DNA of 64,000 bases. It comes from Cyanobacteria bacterium HKST-UBA04. GTDB taxonomy: Bacteria > Cyanobacteriota > Vampirovibrionia > Vampirovibrionales > JAGQHJ01. Of the stretch, positions 51,030 through 63,397 are shown piece after piece. The notes beneath the pieces are model-generated. The model was not told the origin of the DNA. It ran no database searches and saw only the letters and a program-made list of their open reading frames with translations. The position numbers were made by a program, and so were the translations under genes. How positions within the stretch are numbered: position 1 is the stretch's first letter; each line of letters starts with the position of its first letter. The stretch covers positions 18,393-82,392 of the forward strand of contig JAGQHJ010000004.1 of assembly GCA_020431915.1 (NCBI GenBank), written 5' to 3'.

Positions 51030-51701
51030 ATGTTTCACGGCCTGTACCAAAAAAAACAGCAGCACCAGGACGCCGAAATCTGCGATACCTTCGGCTGGCC
51101 ACCGATGTATCGGTTCCGGCTGCCCGACGAGCATGTCAGTGCCCCCCAGAACTTCGACTTTGAAATCGGCCTGGAGAGCCAGCCTTCGCGATCCCTGACC
51201 ATGGCCCAGATTAAGGCCATGCCCACGTCAACGGAAATGCGACTGATTGCCAGCCGTTTTGGCTGGGCCTACCGGGCAAACTGGAGCTGTATCACCTTCC
51301 AGACCCTCTTCAGCCTGTTCAGCAACCCCAACATGTACGAATGGGTCCAGATGACCTCGCTTAACCACCAGCGCATGATCATCCGGCGCGATCAGTTAAG
51401 CCAATGGCGTTTGATATACGCATGCAACAACCAACCCCTCACCCCCCTGTACGGCGGCCCGTTGTGGATGCATAACTTCGACCATTACGTCGAGTACGGC
51501 TTCAACCATATCCAAAGCCTCAAACTGCTGCAAACCACCCCGGACATTCCCAGCAACGCGTCGTGCAAACACTCCTGGTTCCACGCCGAAACCCTGGGCT
51601 ACAAGTTATCCGATGACGACTGCCGAATCGCAGCCGGCACGTACTACGCCATCCATGAAGAAAAGCTGGTGGAACTGGGGCACCTGGGCAAAAAACTTTA
51701 A
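51030..51701 (+). CDS. hypothetical protein with a degenerate molybdopterin-oxidoreductase (sulfite oxidase/YedY-like) domain pattern
   Basis: The pattern FDFEIGLESQPSRSLTMAQIKAMP ... FGWAYRANWSCITFQTLF ... NNQPLTPLYGGPLWMHNFDHYVEYGFNHIQSLKLL parallels the W.l.v.G...lt..dL..lp / hCV.gWs..a.W.G / G.pL....GgP.RlvvP..yg.ks.KWl. template as I remember it. The Mo-ligand Cys position appears substituted. Confidence 0.4.
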   Translation: MFHGLYQKKQQHQDAEICDTFGWPPMYRFRLPDEHVSAPQNFDFEIGLESQPSRSLTMAQIKAMPTSTEMRLIASRFGWAYRANWSCITFQTLFSLFSNPNMYEWVQMTSLNHQRMIIRRDQLSQWRLIYACNNQPLTPLYGGPLWMHNFDHYVEYGFNHIQSLKLLQTTPDIPSNASCKHSWFHAETLGYKLSDDDCRIAAGTYYAIHEEKLVELGHLGKKL

Positions 51702-51789
51702 GACCGCCTTAAAACCTTTCCTGCCCAAGTGCGTCTTCTCTTCTACTGTGTCACGCCCCCTCCTCATTTCCCATGATTCTGGTTTTGTT

Positions 51790-52800
51790 ATGACTTTCTG
51801 CAGCCCCTTTATGATGACCCCCCGGCCTTCAGCCACCACCGCCCGGCAACGACCAGGACTGCTGGTCGTGTCGGTAGTCGCAGGACTGCTGGTTGTTTTG
51901 GCGGCGGTTTACGATTGCCCCGAGGCAGCCGCCTTTACCAAGGTCGATGACGTCATTGAACTGGACAAACCCGAGGCAGACAAACAGAACGTGAAGCTGA
52001 ACAAACCCCTCGAGCAGCTTGCCAACCCCCTGCAGTCCAACTACGCCCAAACCCAAACCATTACGGTACAAGACAAACTGAACCTGGACATGCTCTGGAG
52101 TGGTATTGTCGATGGCAACCCGATCCTGCAGTTTGGCATCAAGCGGCTGGCCACCCCGCCCGAACTGCGCGATGCCCACAACAGCGTAATGAGCCGGGCT
52201 TTGGGCAGCATGATTAGCGGGGTGGGCATGTTGCCCTACGCCTTTGGGGCCGGGCCGGGTTCGGCCAGCGGGGCTGTGGTGGGATCAAGCCTGTTGAACC
52301 GTGCCTTGTTTAAGGTGGACGAAGCCGAACTGCGCGAACTACCCACTGACCGCGAACTGGTGGAACTAAGCAGCCTGATCCAGGAACTGCAACAGAACCT
52401 GGTCCTGAATTATTTTGCCTACAAGGGGGCCCTGTGGCAGGTTGAAGCCCTGAAAATCCAGTCGCGCCAAACCTTCGACAATGCCGGCTCCGATGACCAG
52501 ATCCCCTCGCTGGCCGGTTATGTGGCCGCCAACAACGAGGTCGACTACCAAATGGCCCTGGTGACCGCCCGACATCGGCTGGTGATGCTGGAGCGCCTGG
52601 TCAGCCCGGAGGTCATCAGTAAATTGCGCTTTACCGATGACCCCACCGATGCCTATACCCCCGAAGCCGCCACCCAACCTGCTGCAAGCAGCCACCCGGC
52701 CACCATGGCAGACGGGCCCGCCTCAGGTCTTGCCCATCCCTTTGGCCCGTCAGGCCCGACTATAGAAACAGGCGCTTCCCAGGAGCATGGCGATGAGTAA
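51790..52800 (+). CDS. hypothetical membrane-anchored helical protein, tandem paralog 1 (TolC-like N-terminal motif)
   Basis: Start set at the ATG at 51790, after the upstream gene ends. TM anchor LLVVSVVAGLLVVLAAV. LNLDMLWSGIVDGNPILQ and TDRELVELSSLIQELQQNLVLNYFAYKG align with the next gene. Confidence 0.5.
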   Translation: MTFCSPFMMTPRPSATTARQRPGLLVVSVVAGLLVVLAAVYDCPEAAAFTKVDDVIELDKPEADKQNVKLNKPLEQLANPLQSNYAQTQTITVQDKLNLDMLWSGIVDGNPILQFGIKRLATPPELRDAHNSVMSRALGSMISGVGMLPYAFGAGPGSASGAVVGSSLLNRALFKVDEAELRELPTDRELVELSSLIQELQQNLVLNYFAYKGALWQVEALKIQSRQTFDNAGSDDQIPSLAGYVAANNEVDYQMALVTARHRLVMLERLVSPEVISKLRFTDDPTDAYTPEAATQPAASSHPATMADGPASGLAHPFGPSGPTIETGASQEHGDE

Positions 52801-53656
52801 CCGTAATCGAATCCATCACGGCATTCTATTGGCCGCGTTGGTCGGCAGTTTCTGGATGATGATGGCCACACCGGCCCGGTGCTTGGCCAGCGAGCTGCAA
52901 ACCATCCATGAGGCATTGGCCGTGCAGGATGCCGAACAAACCCAGCGACAAATGACCCATTTGGATTTGCTGTGGCGCCATGCCCTGCAACATAACCCGT
53001 CCGTTATTTTAGCCTTGGAAAAACTTTCGGAAAAAGCCGAGGAAGGGTCGAGCGGCACGCGAAAAAAACAATTCGCCTCCAACATGGTCAAGCAAATGGT
53101 CAGCCTTGGCGGGCTGGGCAGCTCCATTGCCCTTGGCTCGCCCGTACCGATGATCGGGTCGAGTATTTTCGGTAACTTTGCGGGGCTAACCGACGCACAA
53201 AAAAACCTGAACCACATTACCCCGACCGACATGGTGCTGCTGGCCCGCGAGATCAGCCACATTCAGTCGGAAATTGTCGAGCAGTACCTGGCTTATCGGC
53301 AAAGCATGCAGGAGGTCGGCTATTATGAGCAGCTGGCCAACCAACTCCACAAGAAAATGGCCGTGGCCAAAATATCAGGCCTCCGACCGGACGGCACCCA
53401 GGCCGATCCGTATTACGATCAACTGCACGCCTGGTGGCTCGACAGCCAGTTTAAGCAGGTACAGGCCCAAACCCGACTGAAGTCGGCCCGGCAGGTGCTG
53501 ATGTGGACCTGCGGCGTCGACGCCCTGCACGAGCTGGACAAACACCTGGCCAAGGATCCGACGATGGCCCCCCGCACAACGGACACCGATGGCCAAGCCA
53601 CACGCCATGCGCCCGTTGACCCCCCCACAGTGGGTATGGTTGAATCACAACTATGA
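52787..53656 (+). CDS. hypothetical membrane-anchored helical protein, tandem paralog 2
   Basis: Signal/anchor ILLAALVGSFWMMMA. THLDLLWRHALQHNPSVI and TDMVLLAREISHIQSEIVEQYLAYRQ align with paralog 1. It overlaps its neighbours by 14 nt and 4 nt. Confidence 0.5.
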   Translation: MAMSNRNRIHHGILLAALVGSFWMMMATPARCLASELQTIHEALAVQDAEQTQRQMTHLDLLWRHALQHNPSVILALEKLSEKAEEGSSGTRKKQFASNMVKQMVSLGGLGSSIALGSPVPMIGSSIFGNFAGLTDAQKNLNHITPTDMVLLAREISHIQSEIVEQYLAYRQSMQEVGYYEQLANQLHKKMAVAKISGLRPDGTQADPYYDQLHAWWLDSQFKQVQAQTRLKSARQVLMWTCGVDALHELDKHLAKDPTMAPRTTDTDGQATRHAPVDPPTVGMVESQL

Positions 53657-54717
53657 AGCAAGCGTCTTGTACACCCGCCTCGGCATGCCCGCTCGACATT
53701 GTTTGTATCGGCAGTGCGCTGGAAGATATTTTTATAAACGTGCCCGTGCACGATGATGCCACGGCGTTCATTCGATCCAACCACCTGAGCATCAGTCTGG
53801 GCGCTAAAATTAACGTGGACTACCCCCTCATTGAAGTCGGGGGCGGGGGCACCAACACGGCCATGAACTTCAGCATCCAGGGCTTGAAGGTGGGGCTGCT
53901 CTCCAAAATTGCCAACGACGACGGGGGCCACCTGATTCGCAACCGCCTCGAAGACGCTCGCATTGACCTGCGTTATCTGCAGGTGGACACGGACTCGGCA
54001 GCCCACACCGGCATGTCGATTATCCTCAACGTCCCCCAGCATGATCGTTCCGTCCTGGTTAACCGGGGCGTGAGCCACGGCATTGACTTTGACACCGTGG
54101 ACTGGGACCAGTTTAAAACCGTCCCCTGGCTGTATGTGGCGTCCTACGGCAGCCCCAACGAAGACGATTTTGAGCGTCTGGCCGCCTTGGCCAGGGATCA
54201 TGACGTCAAGATAGCCTTTAACCCCAGCATTAACCAGATTAAACGGGGCCTCAAGGTCATCGGCCCGCTTATCGAAGCCTCGGTCATTGTCTCAATGAAC
54301 CGCACCGAGGCCACGCTGCTGACCAAGTCCAAGAAGAACGAACGGGTCACCGTACTGCTCGACAAGATGCGCGACCTTTGCCCCGGTCTGACCCTGATTA
54401 CCTGCGGGGCAAGCGGCGTGTTTGCCGCCGACGCCAATAACCGCCGCTATTACATTCCGCCCATGAAAGTGAATGCCACCTCCACCCTGGGTGCTGGAGA
54501 TGCCTTCTGCAGCACGTTCACGGCATCCATTATCAAGGACGGCTGGGATGTACCGCTGGCTCTGAAGCGGGCCAACGTCAGCGCCGCCCACGTTATCCAG
54601 GAACCGGGTGCCCAACGGGGTCTGCTGCCTATCGACGACCTCGACGCCGAGCTGAAGACCCTTAACCTAAGCGTGGATGTGCTCGACAAGGAAATGACCC
54701 CACAACCCACCCCTTAA
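53653..54717 (+). CDS. PfkB-family carbohydrate kinase
   Basis: The GGGGTNTAMNF and C-terminal TLGAGDAFCSTF (DTxGAGD-like) motifs. Its start overlaps the upstream stop (ATGA). Confidence 0.8.
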   Translation: MKQASCTPASACPLDIVCIGSALEDIFINVPVHDDATAFIRSNHLSISLGAKINVDYPLIEVGGGGTNTAMNFSIQGLKVGLLSKIANDDGGHLIRNRLEDARIDLRYLQVDTDSAAHTGMSIILNVPQHDRSVLVNRGVSHGIDFDTVDWDQFKTVPWLYVASYGSPNEDDFERLAALARDHDVKIAFNPSINQIKRGLKVIGPLIEASVIVSMNRTEATLLTKSKKNERVTVLLDKMRDLCPGLTLITCGASGVFAADANNRRYYIPPMKVNATSTLGAGDAFCSTFTASIIKDGWDVPLALKRANVSAAHVIQEPGAQRGLLPIDDLDAELKTLNLSVDVLDKEMTPQPTP

Positions 54718-60084: not shown

Positions 60085-61410
60085 ATGATTGATGTGATGC
60101 TTGTCGCTGCCCTGCGTTTCCCTACCAAAACCGGCTTTGCCTATAGCCTCGGCTTGCTGCTGGCTGCGCTCTTCCTTTTGGGGTGCCCCGGCTGGGCCTT
60201 GGCCAATAACGTGTACATTGCCGCCGGTCATCAGCACCTTGAGCCCCTTAACGGCATGACCACCCTGGATGGCGGGGTGGTGATTAAAACCGACACTGCC
60301 ACGATGAGCGCCGGGTCGGCCCAGATGGTGTTGTCCGGCAGTGCCCCGCAATCGCTTGTAATGAACGGTGGGGCCTCGATGACGCGACTGGAGAACAACG
60401 TCGAGCAAACCATCCATGCAAACCAGGTGGCCGTGGATTTTGCCACCAACGACGTCAATGCCCAGGGCAGTGTCTCAACGCAGATGGCCGACAAAGGCAA
60501 GCCTGCCGACAACGTCACCATCCAGTCCGATGATCAGGTGTTTGACCAAACCAACCACGTCATGCGCGCCATTGGCCACGTCAAGGTCACCAAGGGTGAC
60601 ATGGTGGCCACCAGCCCGGAAGCCGTTATTACCATGGGCGACGACGGTCAGGCCAAAAAAGCCCTGTTCAAGAACGGGGCCAAGCTGGTCAGCTCCGACC
60701 AGATTTTGACGGCCGAGCTGATTACCATTGATTTGGCCACCGGCGACATCTACGCCGAGAAAAACACCCGCAGCCAAATCAAGTCCAAACCGGACGACGC
60801 CAAGCAAACCGGCAAGAAACCACAACCCGCCCCTGCCGCCAAGGCCGGCGACACGAAGGACGATGTGGAAGTCACGGCCGATTTTCAGGAGCTGAACCAG
60901 GATACCGGGACCCTGATTGCCAATGGCAACGCGGTGGTCAACTACGGCGATTTCATAGCCAAGGGGCCAAAAGCCACGTTCTACTCGGAAAACAATACCC
61001 TGGACCACATTACCCTGACCAACCGGGCCGAGATTGTGGACAACGACCGCCGGGTCATTGGCGACACGGTTATAATCACCATTGATCCGCGTCAGTTCAC
61101 GGCCAAGGGCAATGTTCAAAGCTTTATGCAAACCAAGCAAAAAGCCGAACCCGAAAAGAAACCCGACGCGCGACCGGAACCCGACGCCAGCCAGCCTGCA
61201 GCCAAAACCAAACCCGTCAGCGCAAAACCGGCGGCCGCAAAAACCGGTAGCAACAAAACCAGCAATAACAAAACCAGTGCCCATCAGTCGGCCCAAGCGG
61301 TCAGCGCCACCGTGCAGTCGGCCAAGGCTACCAAGCAGGCCCCGCCCAAACCGGCCATTAACCAGGCAGCCTTGAACGAGGCCCTCATGCTTGAGGAAGC
61401 GTCCCGCTAA
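60085..61410 (+). CDS. LptA/OstA-like LPS transport periplasmic protein with a Lys/Pro/Ala-rich C-terminal tail
   Basis: N-terminal signal/anchor, OstA-like beta-jellyroll pattern (repeated short beta-strand segments such as GNAVVNYGDFIAKGPKATF), and a position directly upstream of lptB. Confidence 0.65.
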   Translation: MIDVMLVAALRFPTKTGFAYSLGLLLAALFLLGCPGWALANNVYIAAGHQHLEPLNGMTTLDGGVVIKTDTATMSAGSAQMVLSGSAPQSLVMNGGASMTRLENNVEQTIHANQVAVDFATNDVNAQGSVSTQMADKGKPADNVTIQSDDQVFDQTNHVMRAIGHVKVTKGDMVATSPEAVITMGDDGQAKKALFKNGAKLVSSDQILTAELITIDLATGDIYAEKNTRSQIKSKPDDAKQTGKKPQPAPAAKAGDTKDDVEVTADFQELNQDTGTLIANGNAVVNYGDFIAKGPKATFYSENNTLDHITLTNRAEIVDNDRRVIGDTVIITIDPRQFTAKGNVQSFMQTKQKAEPEKKPDARPEPDASQPAAKTKPVSAKPAAAKTGSNKTSNNKTSAHQSAQAVSATVQSAKATKQAPPKPAINQAALNEALMLEEASR

Positions 61411-61514
61411 CCTTGGCAGGCATGCTCAAAAACACGATACACGCCTGGGGCGCGGCACCCTCCTTATTCCGTTGTTAAAGGCTTTTTCCCTGATCTAGAG
61501 AGAGTACATCCCCT

Positions 61515-62234
61515 ATGGCCCTGGTGGTTGAAGGACTCCACAAACGATACGGCGGCCGCCCCGTCGTCAACGGCGTCTCGTTCGACGTCAATCCCGGCGA
61601 AATTGTGGGATTGCTGGGCCCCAACGGGGCCGGTAAGACCACCTCCTTTTATTCGGTACTTGGTATTATCCGGCCCGATGCCGGGGCCGTGTTCGTCGAC
61701 GAACGCGACATTTCCAACCTGCCCATCCACGAGCGCGCCCAGGCCGGTGTGGGTTACCTGCCACAAGAAACCTCCGTCTTTCGCAGGCTAACGGTTGAAG
61801 AAAATCTCCGGCTGGTTCAGGAGTTTCAGCCCGACAGCAAGGAAGACAAGGAAGAGCAGCTCGAGGGGCTGCTCACCGAGTTTGGCCTGCAAAAACACCG
61901 CAAAAGCCTGGCCATTCAATTGTCCGGTGGCGAACGGCGACGAACGGAAATTGCACGGGCCATTGCAGCCAAACCGGATTTTTTGCTACTGGATGAACCC
62001 TTTACCGGCATCGACCCTTTGGCCATTCAGGACATCCAGCGACTGGTACTCCAACTCAAGGATCGCGGCCTGGGCATTCTGCTGACGGACCACAACCCCA
62101 AAGCCACCTTGAGCATTGTGGATCGGGCCTACATTATTTACGACGGCCAAATTATTTTTAGCGGCCCTTCCTGGGAAGTGGCCTCCAACGAGCTGGTAAA
62201 ACAGTACTACCTGGGTTCGGATTTCTCACTATGA
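61515..62234 (+). CDS. lptB: LPS export ABC transporter ATP-binding protein LptB
   Basis: GLLGPNGAGKTTSFY, signature LSGGERRRTEIARA, Walker B FLLLDEPFTGIDP. 239 aa. Confidence 0.9.
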   Translation: MALVVEGLHKRYGGRPVVNGVSFDVNPGEIVGLLGPNGAGKTTSFYSVLGIIRPDAGAVFVDERDISNLPIHERAQAGVGYLPQETSVFRRLTVEENLRLVQEFQPDSKEDKEEQLEGLLTEFGLQKHRKSLAIQLSGGERRRTEIARAIAAKPDFLLLDEPFTGIDPLAIQDIQRLVLQLKDRGLGILLTDHNPKATLSIVDRAYIIYDGQIIFSGPSWEVASNELVKQYYLGSDFSL

Positions 62235-63397
62235 TCCGCCGGGTCAACACCATTCTTGACCGGTACCTGGCCCAGCGCATGGGGCTTATCAGCTTGTTTG
62301 CCCTGGTACTGTTTACCGTGGCCTGGCTCGCGCCTGAAATTTTGTTTAGGGCCGTGCGCGGTATTGCAGACAAGGAGCTGACCGTGGCCCAAGGACTGCT
62401 TTACCTGGCGCTGCAGGTACCCGGTGTGCTGGCCTATTGTATTCCCATTGCCGCCTTGTTCAGCAGCGTATTCCTGTTCCGGCAGCTCAGCCTTTCCTCG
62501 GAACTGGTCGCCATCCAGGCTGCCGGCATTTCCTTTAAGCGGCTCCTGCTACCCATCGGCATGGTGGGGCTGGCACTGACCGGCCTGTTTGTATTGAACC
62601 AGGAAGTGCTGCAGCCCCAGGCCCTCAAGAGCTTGAAACACCTGAGCAACACTACCGGTTTTCAAAAACAGGAGCAGGTGCCGCCTTTTGTCACCTTTGT
62701 GGAACGCTCCGACAACGGGCAGATGAGCAAGTTCCTCATCATTCTGCCCGAAGCCGCCCCGGAACAAAGCCAGTTTATCTGCCTGTTCTTCAATACCGTA
62801 TCCAAGGAAATGAAAACCCAGATAGAAGGCCTGGAAAACGCGTCGCAATACATCACCCGTATCGTCACGGCCCAGTCCAGCCAGTGGGACGCCTCGAACA
62901 GCGTTTGGCTGCTGAACCAGGGCTGGCTGTACACCCTGGGCAACGACGGTATTTACAAGACCAGCCAGGCCTTCCAGAAGGCCAGCGTAAAAACCACCCC
63001 GCTGGCTGCCAAGATTATTGCCTTCCCGTACATCAAGGCCCCCGAAATGAACGTACTGGAACTGGGTCATTATGTTGACCTGCTGACCCGCGCCGGGCAA
63101 ACCAATGACGGCCGATTTTTCAGCGTGAAGTGGGTCCAGCGGTTTACGCTACCGTGGGTGGTTTTTATTTTTTCCGTCCTCGGCTGTGCCATTGGCATTG
63201 AACGCAGCCGGTCGCGCAAGAACCTGGGGTTAACCTACACGGCCCTGCTGCTGCTGCTGTATAACGTGATGGTCTCAATTACCACGACCATGGGCAATGT
63301 CGGGGTACTGCCGGTCTGGCTCAGCGGGCTGCTCCCCATGGCTTTTGCCACGGCCAGCGGCCTGGCTGTGGGGCAGCTCCGGCGCCTTGAACTTTAA
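62231..63397 (+). CDS. LPS export ABC transporter permease (LptF/LptG, YjgP/YjgQ family)
   Basis: The N-terminal ILDRYLAQRM..., six-TM architecture with a large periplasmic loop, and a 4-nt overlap with lptB. Confidence 0.8.
   Translation: MIRRVNTILDRYLAQRMGLISLFALVLFTVAWLAPEILFRAVRGIADKELTVAQGLLYLALQVPGVLAYCIPIAALFSSVFLFRQLSLSSELVAIQAAGISFKRLLLPIGMVGLALTGLFVLNQEVLQPQALKSLKHLSNTTGFQKQEQVPPFVTFVERSDNGQMSKFLIILPEAAPEQSQFICLFFNTVSKEMKTQIEGLENASQYITRIVTAQSSQWDASNSVWLLNQGWLYTLGNDGIYKTSQAFQKASVKTTPLAAKIIAFPYIKAPEMNVLELGHYVDLLTRAGQTNDGRFFSVKWVQRFTLPWVVFIFSVLGCAIGIERSRSRKNLGLTYTALLLLLYNVMVSITTTMGNVGVLPVWLSGLLPMAFATASGLAVGQLRRLEL

Follow-up and report, generated by a model that had tools for sequence, protein, structure and literature searches.

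The subject of this analysis is a four-gene locus in a 64,000-nt stretch of contig JAGQHJ010000004.1 (positions 18,393 to 82,392 of the forward strand, hereafter the window) from Cyanobacteria bacterium HKST-UBA04, a metagenome-assembled genome of the Vampirovibrionales (2.7 Mb, 88% complete). The locus has a GC content of 55–60% and comprises a gene for a look-alike of molybdenum cofactor (Moco) enzymes (g1), two paralogous genes (g2 and g3), whose products recall the repeat of TolC-type outer-membrane factors (OMFs), and a kinase gene (g4), arranged as follows:

51030-51701, + strand: g1, 223 aa; predicted cytoplasmic look-alike of the SUOX fold (YedY/sulfite-oxidase Moco domain) (open reading frame list, Pfam)
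51702-51789, + strand: spacer between g1 and g2, 88 nt (direct reading)
51790-52800, + strand: g2, 336 aa; predicted exported protein, open frame extending back to 51613 (open reading frame list)
52787-53656, + strand: g3, 289 aa; predicted exported paralog of g2, start possibly at 52793 (open reading frame list, junctions)
53653-54717, + strand: g4, 354 aa; PfkB-family (ribokinase-like) kinase, predicted to be cytoplasmic (Pfam)

Reading of the junctions confirmed the four open reading frames of the original prediction, together with the gap and the two overlaps that it had described. The g1 gene ends with TAA at 51699-51701 and the ATG of g2 is located at 51790, which leaves the 88-nt gap; the first ATG of g3, at 52787, precedes the end of the g2 TAA (52800) by 14 nt, and the ATG of g4 at 53653 overlaps the TGA of g3 as ATGA. 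An AGGAG at 52781-52785 is positioned 1 nt from the ATG at 52787 and 7 nt from a second in-frame ATG at 52793; since it is better spaced from the latter, 52793 may be the likelier start of g3, giving an 8-nt overlap with g2. Consensus scans recovered 7 terminator-like sites between the four genes versus 8.2 expected from shuffled sequence, and the sole promoter-like site of the locus was placed after g4.

The g2 and g3 proteins of the window are poorly represented in direct searches, as a word-indexed homolog search returned just two relatives for each, the nearest database protein being annotated as from Cyanobacteria bacterium HKST-UBA06. The relatives fetched with profiles belong to Vampirovibrio/Vampirovibrionales, including V. 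chlorellavorus NCIMB 11383. The paralogy of the two proteins, proposed at the outset from aligned motifs, is significant at profile level: alignment of the g3 profile (A1) with the g2 profile (A2), each derived from 18 family sequences, gave an hhalign probability of 99.3% and an E-value of 4e-20 over 194 columns. The motifs common to both are LD(M/L)LW...NP, a Gly-rich middle and TD..LV.L...I..LQ...V..Y.AY. All profiles used here are shallow, with an effective number of sequences (Neff) of about 3.5.

The two proteins share a similar architecture. In g2, a signal peptide (~aa 1-47) and a low-complexity linker precede an OEP-repeat-like unit (~aa 96-275) and a disordered tail; the unit consists of a short helix with the LDMLW..NP motif, a Gly-rich segment (~aa 130-180), a 48-residue helix and a 32-residue return helix. 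In g3, an additional helix lies between the signal peptide and the single OEP-repeat-like unit (~aa 59-245), and the tail is again disordered. AlphaFold2 modelled both with moderate mean scores of the predicted local distance difference test (pLDDT; 63.7 for g2, 69.7 for g3), with a core above 90 formed by the short helix, the long helix of 48-52 residues and the return helix of 32-35 residues. Throughout the g2 and g3 families, the N-termini show a basic n-region, a 10-18-residue h-region and AxA-type sites, i.e., the features of Sec-type signal peptides. The single N-terminal "anchor" that had been assigned to each paralog thus gives way to cleavable Sec signal peptides as the family-wide feature, and the presumed anchors are probably cleaved rather than permanent. 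No lipobox was detected among the sampled N-termini of either family, and the idea that g2 and g3 are lipoproteins was set aside.

Several lineage-specific elaborations of the two proteins were observed. Vampirovibrionaceae g2 proteins (e.g., L030:7001-8365) carry directly after the signal peptide a strongly conserved R-D-F-L-P-P-V-A-x-I-N motif followed by EPVALSAV; the former is missing from g2 of the window's family. Long forms of g3 (480-750 aa) occur in the gut lineage (P0100, P0123, P0117; L065:6739-8460, L066:7980-9425), with Lys/Glu-rich low-complexity C-terminal extensions that terminate in a conserved LPPLD.IK.PDL..GGYSIHSEY. No Pfam domain was found in these low-complexity extensions, so domain fusions of the long g3 forms as a clue to function were set aside.

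We found the tandem g2-g3 pair in all 41 analyzed genomes of the order Vampirovibrionales, which represent three families and 25 genera. At class level, the g2/g3 family, as defined by the g2 profile, was detected in 142 of 151 sampled genomes (116 of the 119 high-quality ones) and in all 11 families, while the 174 genomes sampled elsewhere in the phylum yielded no match. Searched exhaustively with HMMER, 1.84 billion representative proteins yielded no more than 293 matching clusters. The g2/g3 family is a narrow, class-specific signature of the Vampirovibrionia (Melainabacteria). The pair as such occurs in the Vampirovibrionales, in a GC-poor family with genomes of 1.6-2.5 Mb (f4) and in another family (f42). 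In most loci that hold the two genes, these share 1-4 nt or follow each other almost without a gap, also in the GC-poor gut lineage. Among the 152 proteins collected by our searches, chiefly top representatives, four are g2-g3 fusions joined in gene order (P0008 of 642 aa, P0061, P0070 and P0099); these natural fusions provide a Rosetta-stone argument that suggests a 1:1 complex of g2 and g3.

Such a distribution also bears on the idea that g2 and g3 form a two-component alpha-helical pore-forming toxin of the ClyA/Nhe/YaxAB type, with the Gly-rich segment as its "tongue", useful to predatory Vampirovibrio. We regard this as very improbable. Tandem paralogs with signal peptides, a hydrophobic, hairpin-sized Gly-rich segment between long helices and the presence in the order of the algal predator Vampirovibrio chlorellavorus would all agree with it; yet the genes are conserved almost universally in the class, as a single locus and also in GC-poor lineages with small, 99%-complete genomes, which fits a housekeeping function; the 50 Foldseek matches listed for either model include no ClyA-family structure, and the profile evidence favors OEP, the Pfam family (PF02321) of the OMF repeat.

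The strongest single result for the link to OEP is its recurrence in the g3 family. When 24,736 Pfam models were compared with E-values up to 10, OEP was matched by 12 of 25 g3 members and was the sole recurrent family, the runner-up reaching 4 of 25. The best of these matches scored 26 bits (E 9.6e-6) against a cut-off of 22, the others inspected 11.6-20.6 bits, and all inspected matches span approximately the same profile positions, 95-187. Counting back from the match puts position 1 of the OEP profile at LDxLW and, hence, the Gly-rich segment at the position of the two β-strands of TolC. The span from LDxLW to the final L..(V)G is ~181 residues, compared with 187 positions in the OEP profile.

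Profile-profile and structure comparisons point in the same direction. Alignment of g3 with a profile built from 17 canonical Vampirovibrionales OMFs gave hhalign probabilities of 62-68% and P-values of 5e-5 to 8e-5; two of three runs span the whole repeat in register, beginning at the LD.LW..NP-like motif and closing at L..(V)G, and the third covers its C-terminal part. For g2, the P-values were 0.002-0.004 (A2 and core profiles) and 0.09 (A4), with the whole repeat in register in all runs, and controls with reversed profiles gave 0.14-0.55. A search of PDB profiles with g3 returned six weak, non-significant matches, among them the OMFs SilC and MtrE, and none with g2. In Foldseek, ranks 1-5 of the g3 model are occupied by CusC (4K34, 4K7K) and a NodT-family OMF (6U94), with probabilities of 0.90-1.00, E-values of 0.09-0.36 and template modelling (TM) scores of 0.22-0.33; further OMFs follow at rank 7 (TOprJ1) and at ranks 32 and 42 (OprM, E 1.3), amid AcrA and BAR-domain matches, with E-values of 0.49-1.5 for these lower OMF matches as a whole. 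The g2 model has a TolC model and NodT at ranks 2-3 with E-values of about 0.8, none of its matches being significant. On these grounds, we consider remote homology of g2 and g3 to the OMF repeat to be quite probable.

Several observations weigh against this reading and against the hetero-oligomeric assembly that we derive from it. The g2 and g3 proteins of the window match no Pfam, NCBIfam or PDB sequence profile significantly; direct OEP similarity is limited to the helical half of the repeat, and with OEP matched by none of 24 g2 members, the link of g2 to OEP is transitive via g3. In both AlphaFold2 models, the Gly-rich segment has a pLDDT below 50 and no β-strands, and its sequence displays no clean alternating β pattern. 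No Foldseek match has an E-value below 0.09, the TM-scores range over 0.2-0.4, and the matches listed include AcrA hairpins and BAR domains; long antiparallel helices are prone to such analogous fold matches. The long helix of 48-52 residues appears, moreover, to be shorter than that of TolC. No membrane-fusion protein (HlyD/MFP) or matching inner-membrane pump adjoins the pair in the loci examined. Finally, most other orders of the class have one detectable g2-like copy, so that a heteromer is not universal.

Some of the same facts are what would be expected if g2 and g3 formed an exported periplasmic coiled-coil scaffold or tether, such as an envelope spacer or a link between membrane and peptidoglycan, with no channel, its likeness to OMFs being convergent or a trace of very distant ancestry. 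The restriction of the direct OEP match to helices, the Gly-rich segment devoid of predicted β-strands and the appearance of AcrA hairpins and BAR domains in the Foldseek lists are consistent with such a role, as are the variable Pro/Lys/Glu-rich linkers and tails, typical of spacer proteins, and the neighborhood of envelope housekeeping genes (lpt, SppA, TPR protein) rather than pumps. Yet, the register over the full repeat, the motifs at either end of it and the agreement in repeat length point specifically to OEP, which is, as noted, the sole recurrent Pfam family, and the first five Foldseek ranks of g3 contain OMFs and no generic coiled coils. Weighing both sides, we see the scaffold as a serious but doubtful alternative.

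The explanation that we favor, with a probability of roughly 55%, is that the real unit of the locus is the translationally coupled g2-g3 pair, in which each protein represents one divergent OEP repeat and which likely forms a hetero-oligomer with a dedicated envelope task. Following this explanation, both proteins would be exported by Sec, and each would correspond to a single divergent copy of the repeat found twice in TolC-type OMFs. They would probably assemble 1:1, and the simplest model would have three g2 and three g3 chains building a pseudo-sixfold helical barrel like that of the TolC trimer, with the Gly-rich middle segments in place of the membrane β-hairpins of TolC. Membrane insertion and channel function of the pair are what we infer from this likeness. 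One repeat-sized unit per chain is found in g2 and g3 of the window, and two in the rare fused forms named above. Canonical two-repeat OEP/OMF proteins are encoded in all 41 relatives, several per genome, so that the pair appears to be an addition to ordinary OMFs, not a replacement; since it coexists with them, a dedicated envelope task would be more likely than general efflux. The candidate role of g2 and g3 as a substitute for a missing TolC was ruled out by the same count.

The half-size, TolC/OEP-like heteromer that the original prediction had sketched is now backed by four independent lines, namely the Pfam matches of the g3 family, the hhalign comparisons, the CusC/NodT/OprM matches in Foldseek and the natural fusions; the support is real but still sub-threshold. 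The original prediction had named, as a result that would refute it, an assignment of the paralogs by profile or structure searches to a known family with a known partner set; profiles do put them near OEP, with no partner set attached. The literature searched contained no paper on half-size TolC proteins or on Vampirovibrio OMFs.

As for g1, the original prediction of a SUOX/YedY-fold protein devoid of both the Mo-ligand Cys and a signal peptide was borne out. The window protein itself scores 21.1 bits against Pfam Oxidored_molyb (PF00174), for which the cut-off is 24, and one relative reaches 47.2 bits; the g1 family profile matches E. coli YedY (1XDQ) with an E-value of 4e-13 in two stretches that cover most of the Moco domain. 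The column of the Mo-ligand Cys of YedY is occupied by Ser in the window ("RLIAS") and its family (f1) and by Phe or Ser in the Vampirovibrionaceae (f3), and none of the Cys residues is invariant among the 22 sequences of the g1 family. Trp also takes the place of the GGPLR Arg in the window's family. The N-terminus, MF(H)SLY, is conserved, non-hydrophobic and without a signal peptide, hence the predicted cytoplasmic location of the protein.

Sampling of 32 genomes of the order recovered g1 in 30 of them; elsewhere in the class, just long canonical SUOX proteins match. Of the 41 genomes of the order, 8 have a detected MoaC; the 18 genomes of family f2, a closed one included, yielded none. The genome from which the window derives, 88% complete, yielded neither MoaC nor MoeA (MoeA_N). 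Most of the Vampirovibrionales thus seem unable to make Moco. The persistence of g1 in genomes where MoaC is undetected supports a non-Moco role, and the combined features suggest that g1 is a cytoplasmic, cofactor-less relative of SUOX-fold proteins, either a pseudo-enzyme or a small-ligand binder. It appears to have joined the locus in the Vampirovibrionales only.

The g4 product matches Pfam PfkB (PF00294) over the full-length domain (132.7 bits, residues 54-323). All its 22 matches to NCBIfam equivalogs stay under the cut-offs, the best being ribokinase with 103 bits versus 299.65 required, and the closest solved structures are ribokinases and an IolC-like kinase (5-dehydro-2-deoxygluconokinase) with E-values of ~1e-12. 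Orthologs of g4 are present in the window's family alone, where they occur in five of five genera, always directly after g3, with kinase identities of 55-59%. In the window, the ATGA overlap couples g4 translationally to g3. None was found in 36 genomes of the sister families f2 and f3, which keep g2-g3. The kinase gene would thus have joined the pair in the window's family only, where it is probably co-transcribed with g2 and g3, and no evidence points to a common pathway.

Taken over all loci, conservation is nested: the g2-g3 pair is class-wide, g1 is restricted to the order and the PfkB kinase to the family, and the four-gene arrangement is a family-level operon arrangement only. The full g1-g2-g3-g4 order is kept wherever the whole stretch could be read (G001, G003 and the Logan contig L009). 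Among the 30 distinct loci examined in the Vampirovibrionales, about 21 have g1 upstream of g2, always at a distance of 84-505 nt; in f2 and in part of the f3 genomes, g1 lies at a separate genomic site.

These data bear directly on the possibility that the four genes form one module, in which the Moco-like pseudo-enzyme and the sugar or nucleoside kinase work with the exported pair, for example by making or sensing a phosphorylated envelope precursor. The g2-g3 and g3-g4 overlaps are real, no terminators were placed between the genes, the complete order recurs in the three sequences named above, and g3 and g4 are adjacent in all five genera of the family. Yet the kinase ortholog was not found in the 36 f2 and f3 genomes that retain the pair, and g1 is missing from other orders and lies apart from the pair in f2 and some of f3; moreover, g1 and g2 are invariably spaced by a gap of promoter size, and g1 and g4 are predicted to be cytoplasmic, in contrast to the exported g2 and g3. 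Such a module is therefore, in our view, improbable. The original prediction, which had named loss of gene order in related genomes as an argument against a functional unit, fared unevenly here, as the order proved to be conserved in all five genera of the window's family, while the idea of four genes conserved as a functional unit did not survive the nested conservation, the frequent unlinking of g1 and the restriction of the kinase to a single family. The WD40 gene noted downstream as a neighbor of the unit is not conserved even within the family, in which the downstream genes vary, and was ruled out as part of the unit.

In most of the loci with g1 upstream of g2 (19 of the 30 loci), a cluster for lipopolysaccharide transport, lptA/C-lptB-lptFG, lies divergently on the other side of g1. 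In the window, it is found 5.4 kb downstream on the same strand:

60085-63397, + strand: lptA/C-like, lptB and lptF/G cluster, given as context only

WD40, uridine-kinase-like and isochorismatase genes lie between it and the locus, and truB and an AT-rich patch are found upstream of g1, unlike in the relatives L014, L015 and L020-L052. The placement of the lpt genes in the window indicates a local rearrangement. The gene beside lptB (window 60085-61410; L014:5431-6582, L027:5405-6598) encodes a protein of 380-440 aa, which is exceptionally long for LptA; its match to the OstA/LptD_N fold is divided into two stretches in one relative, and the protein may represent a fused LptC-LptA bridge.

PF04453, the model of the LptD β-barrel, was detected in none of the 41 genomes despite the presence of lptA/C, lptB and lptF/G, and this model also misses the Synechococcus and Bacteroides controls. 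The replacement of an absent LptD by g2 and g3 was set aside, the PF04453 search being uninformative since the controls were missed too. A bolder variant of the channel idea would make the pair a true split TolC, i.e., a hetero-hexameric channel-tunnel (homo-hexameric in orders with a single copy) that preserves the half-size stage postulated to precede the internal duplication of OMFs and serves a dedicated envelope export route. We think this unlikely. Its candidate role could be the outer-membrane end of the neighboring LptB-FG-A/C lipopolysaccharide bridge, which is proposed because no LptD barrel was detected in what is an insensitive search.

Outside the Vampirovibrionales, the genetic context of the pair or of its single g2-like counterpart is different: lpt genes in this order are replaced by a TPR protein and LipB in the gut lineage, and by SppA and a zinc-ribbon protein, or by RecA, in others. 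As neighbors differ by order, a class-wide conserved neighbor that would reveal the function was ruled out. In orders with a single g2-like copy (L080:6791-9084, L081:6483-9924, L082:5957-8237, L083:4895-7152), a Peptidase_S49 (SppA) gene comes next in the three annotated loci, whose GC content ranges from 31 to 68%, L082 has an open reading frame of the same size after the g2-like gene, and in two of these loci a zinc-ribbon (DUF7577/DZR) protein is encoded before it.

To our knowledge, all described TolC-type channels contain two repeats per chain. Reviews attribute the two OMF repeats to internal gene duplication (PMC8277102). If our favored explanation of g2 and g3 is true, a conserved, coupled single-repeat pair that is occasionally fused would show that a channel can be built from half-size parts and would offer a natural system for studying the assembly and evolution of such barrels. 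The pair also provides a clean molecular marker for the Vampirovibrionia, a non-photosynthetic class, and suggests that these little-studied bacteria, found in the gut, in groundwater or as predators, have an envelope function of their own. The g1 family, in turn, would be a further branch, cytoplasmic and devoid of the Cys, of the few SUOX-fold proteins that do without molybdenum.

Among known systems, the counterparts of g4 are the ribokinase- and IolC-like PfkB kinases, with which it shares the full-length domain; it differs in that its ortholog is confined to one Vampirovibrionales family and reaches no equivalog. The closest solved SUOX-fold relative of g1 is YedY/MsrP (1XDQ), with a common GGP.RL..F/P motif. 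MsrP is exported by Tat and partnered by MsrQ. It is a periplasmic Moco enzyme with Cys102 as Mo ligand, whereas g1 has neither this Cys nor an export signal.

In the loss of the Mo-coordinating Cys, g1 resembles PruR proteins, which are likewise small single-domain SUOX-fold proteins not expected to be enzymes and whose structures (7KOM, 7KP2, 7RKB, 7KOU) are weak matches of the g1 profile (E 0.01-0.8). PruR proteins, the published precedent for such a Cys-less fold, are periplasmic pterin sensors with a signal peptide, the Trp of a PW motif at the Cys position, a truncated β-hairpin and a DcpA-type GGDEF-EAL partner (PMC11194511). In contrast, g1 lacks the signal peptide and the PW motif, carries Ser or Phe in the Cys column, is ~80 residues longer and has no GGDEF/EAL neighbor, adjoining instead lpt genes and the g2-g3 pair.

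As for g2 and g3, the system closest to them is that of the OMFs (TolC/OprM/CusC, PF02321). The differences are considerable: the g2/g3 family does not extend beyond a single bacterial class, the window proteins fall below every detection threshold, a Gly/Met/Ala-rich segment stands in place of the β-strand region, and there is no evident equatorial domain, lipobox, adjacent membrane-fusion protein or pump. Common to both are the order of the repeat (short helix L-x-L..A...NP, hairpin segment, long helix and return helix L..L.G), its nearly equal length (~181 vs. 187), Sec export, and weak but specific profile and fold matches. Where OMFs carry two repeats within a chain, g2 and g3 hold one repeat each and are encoded by two paralogous genes, which occur fused in occasional cases.

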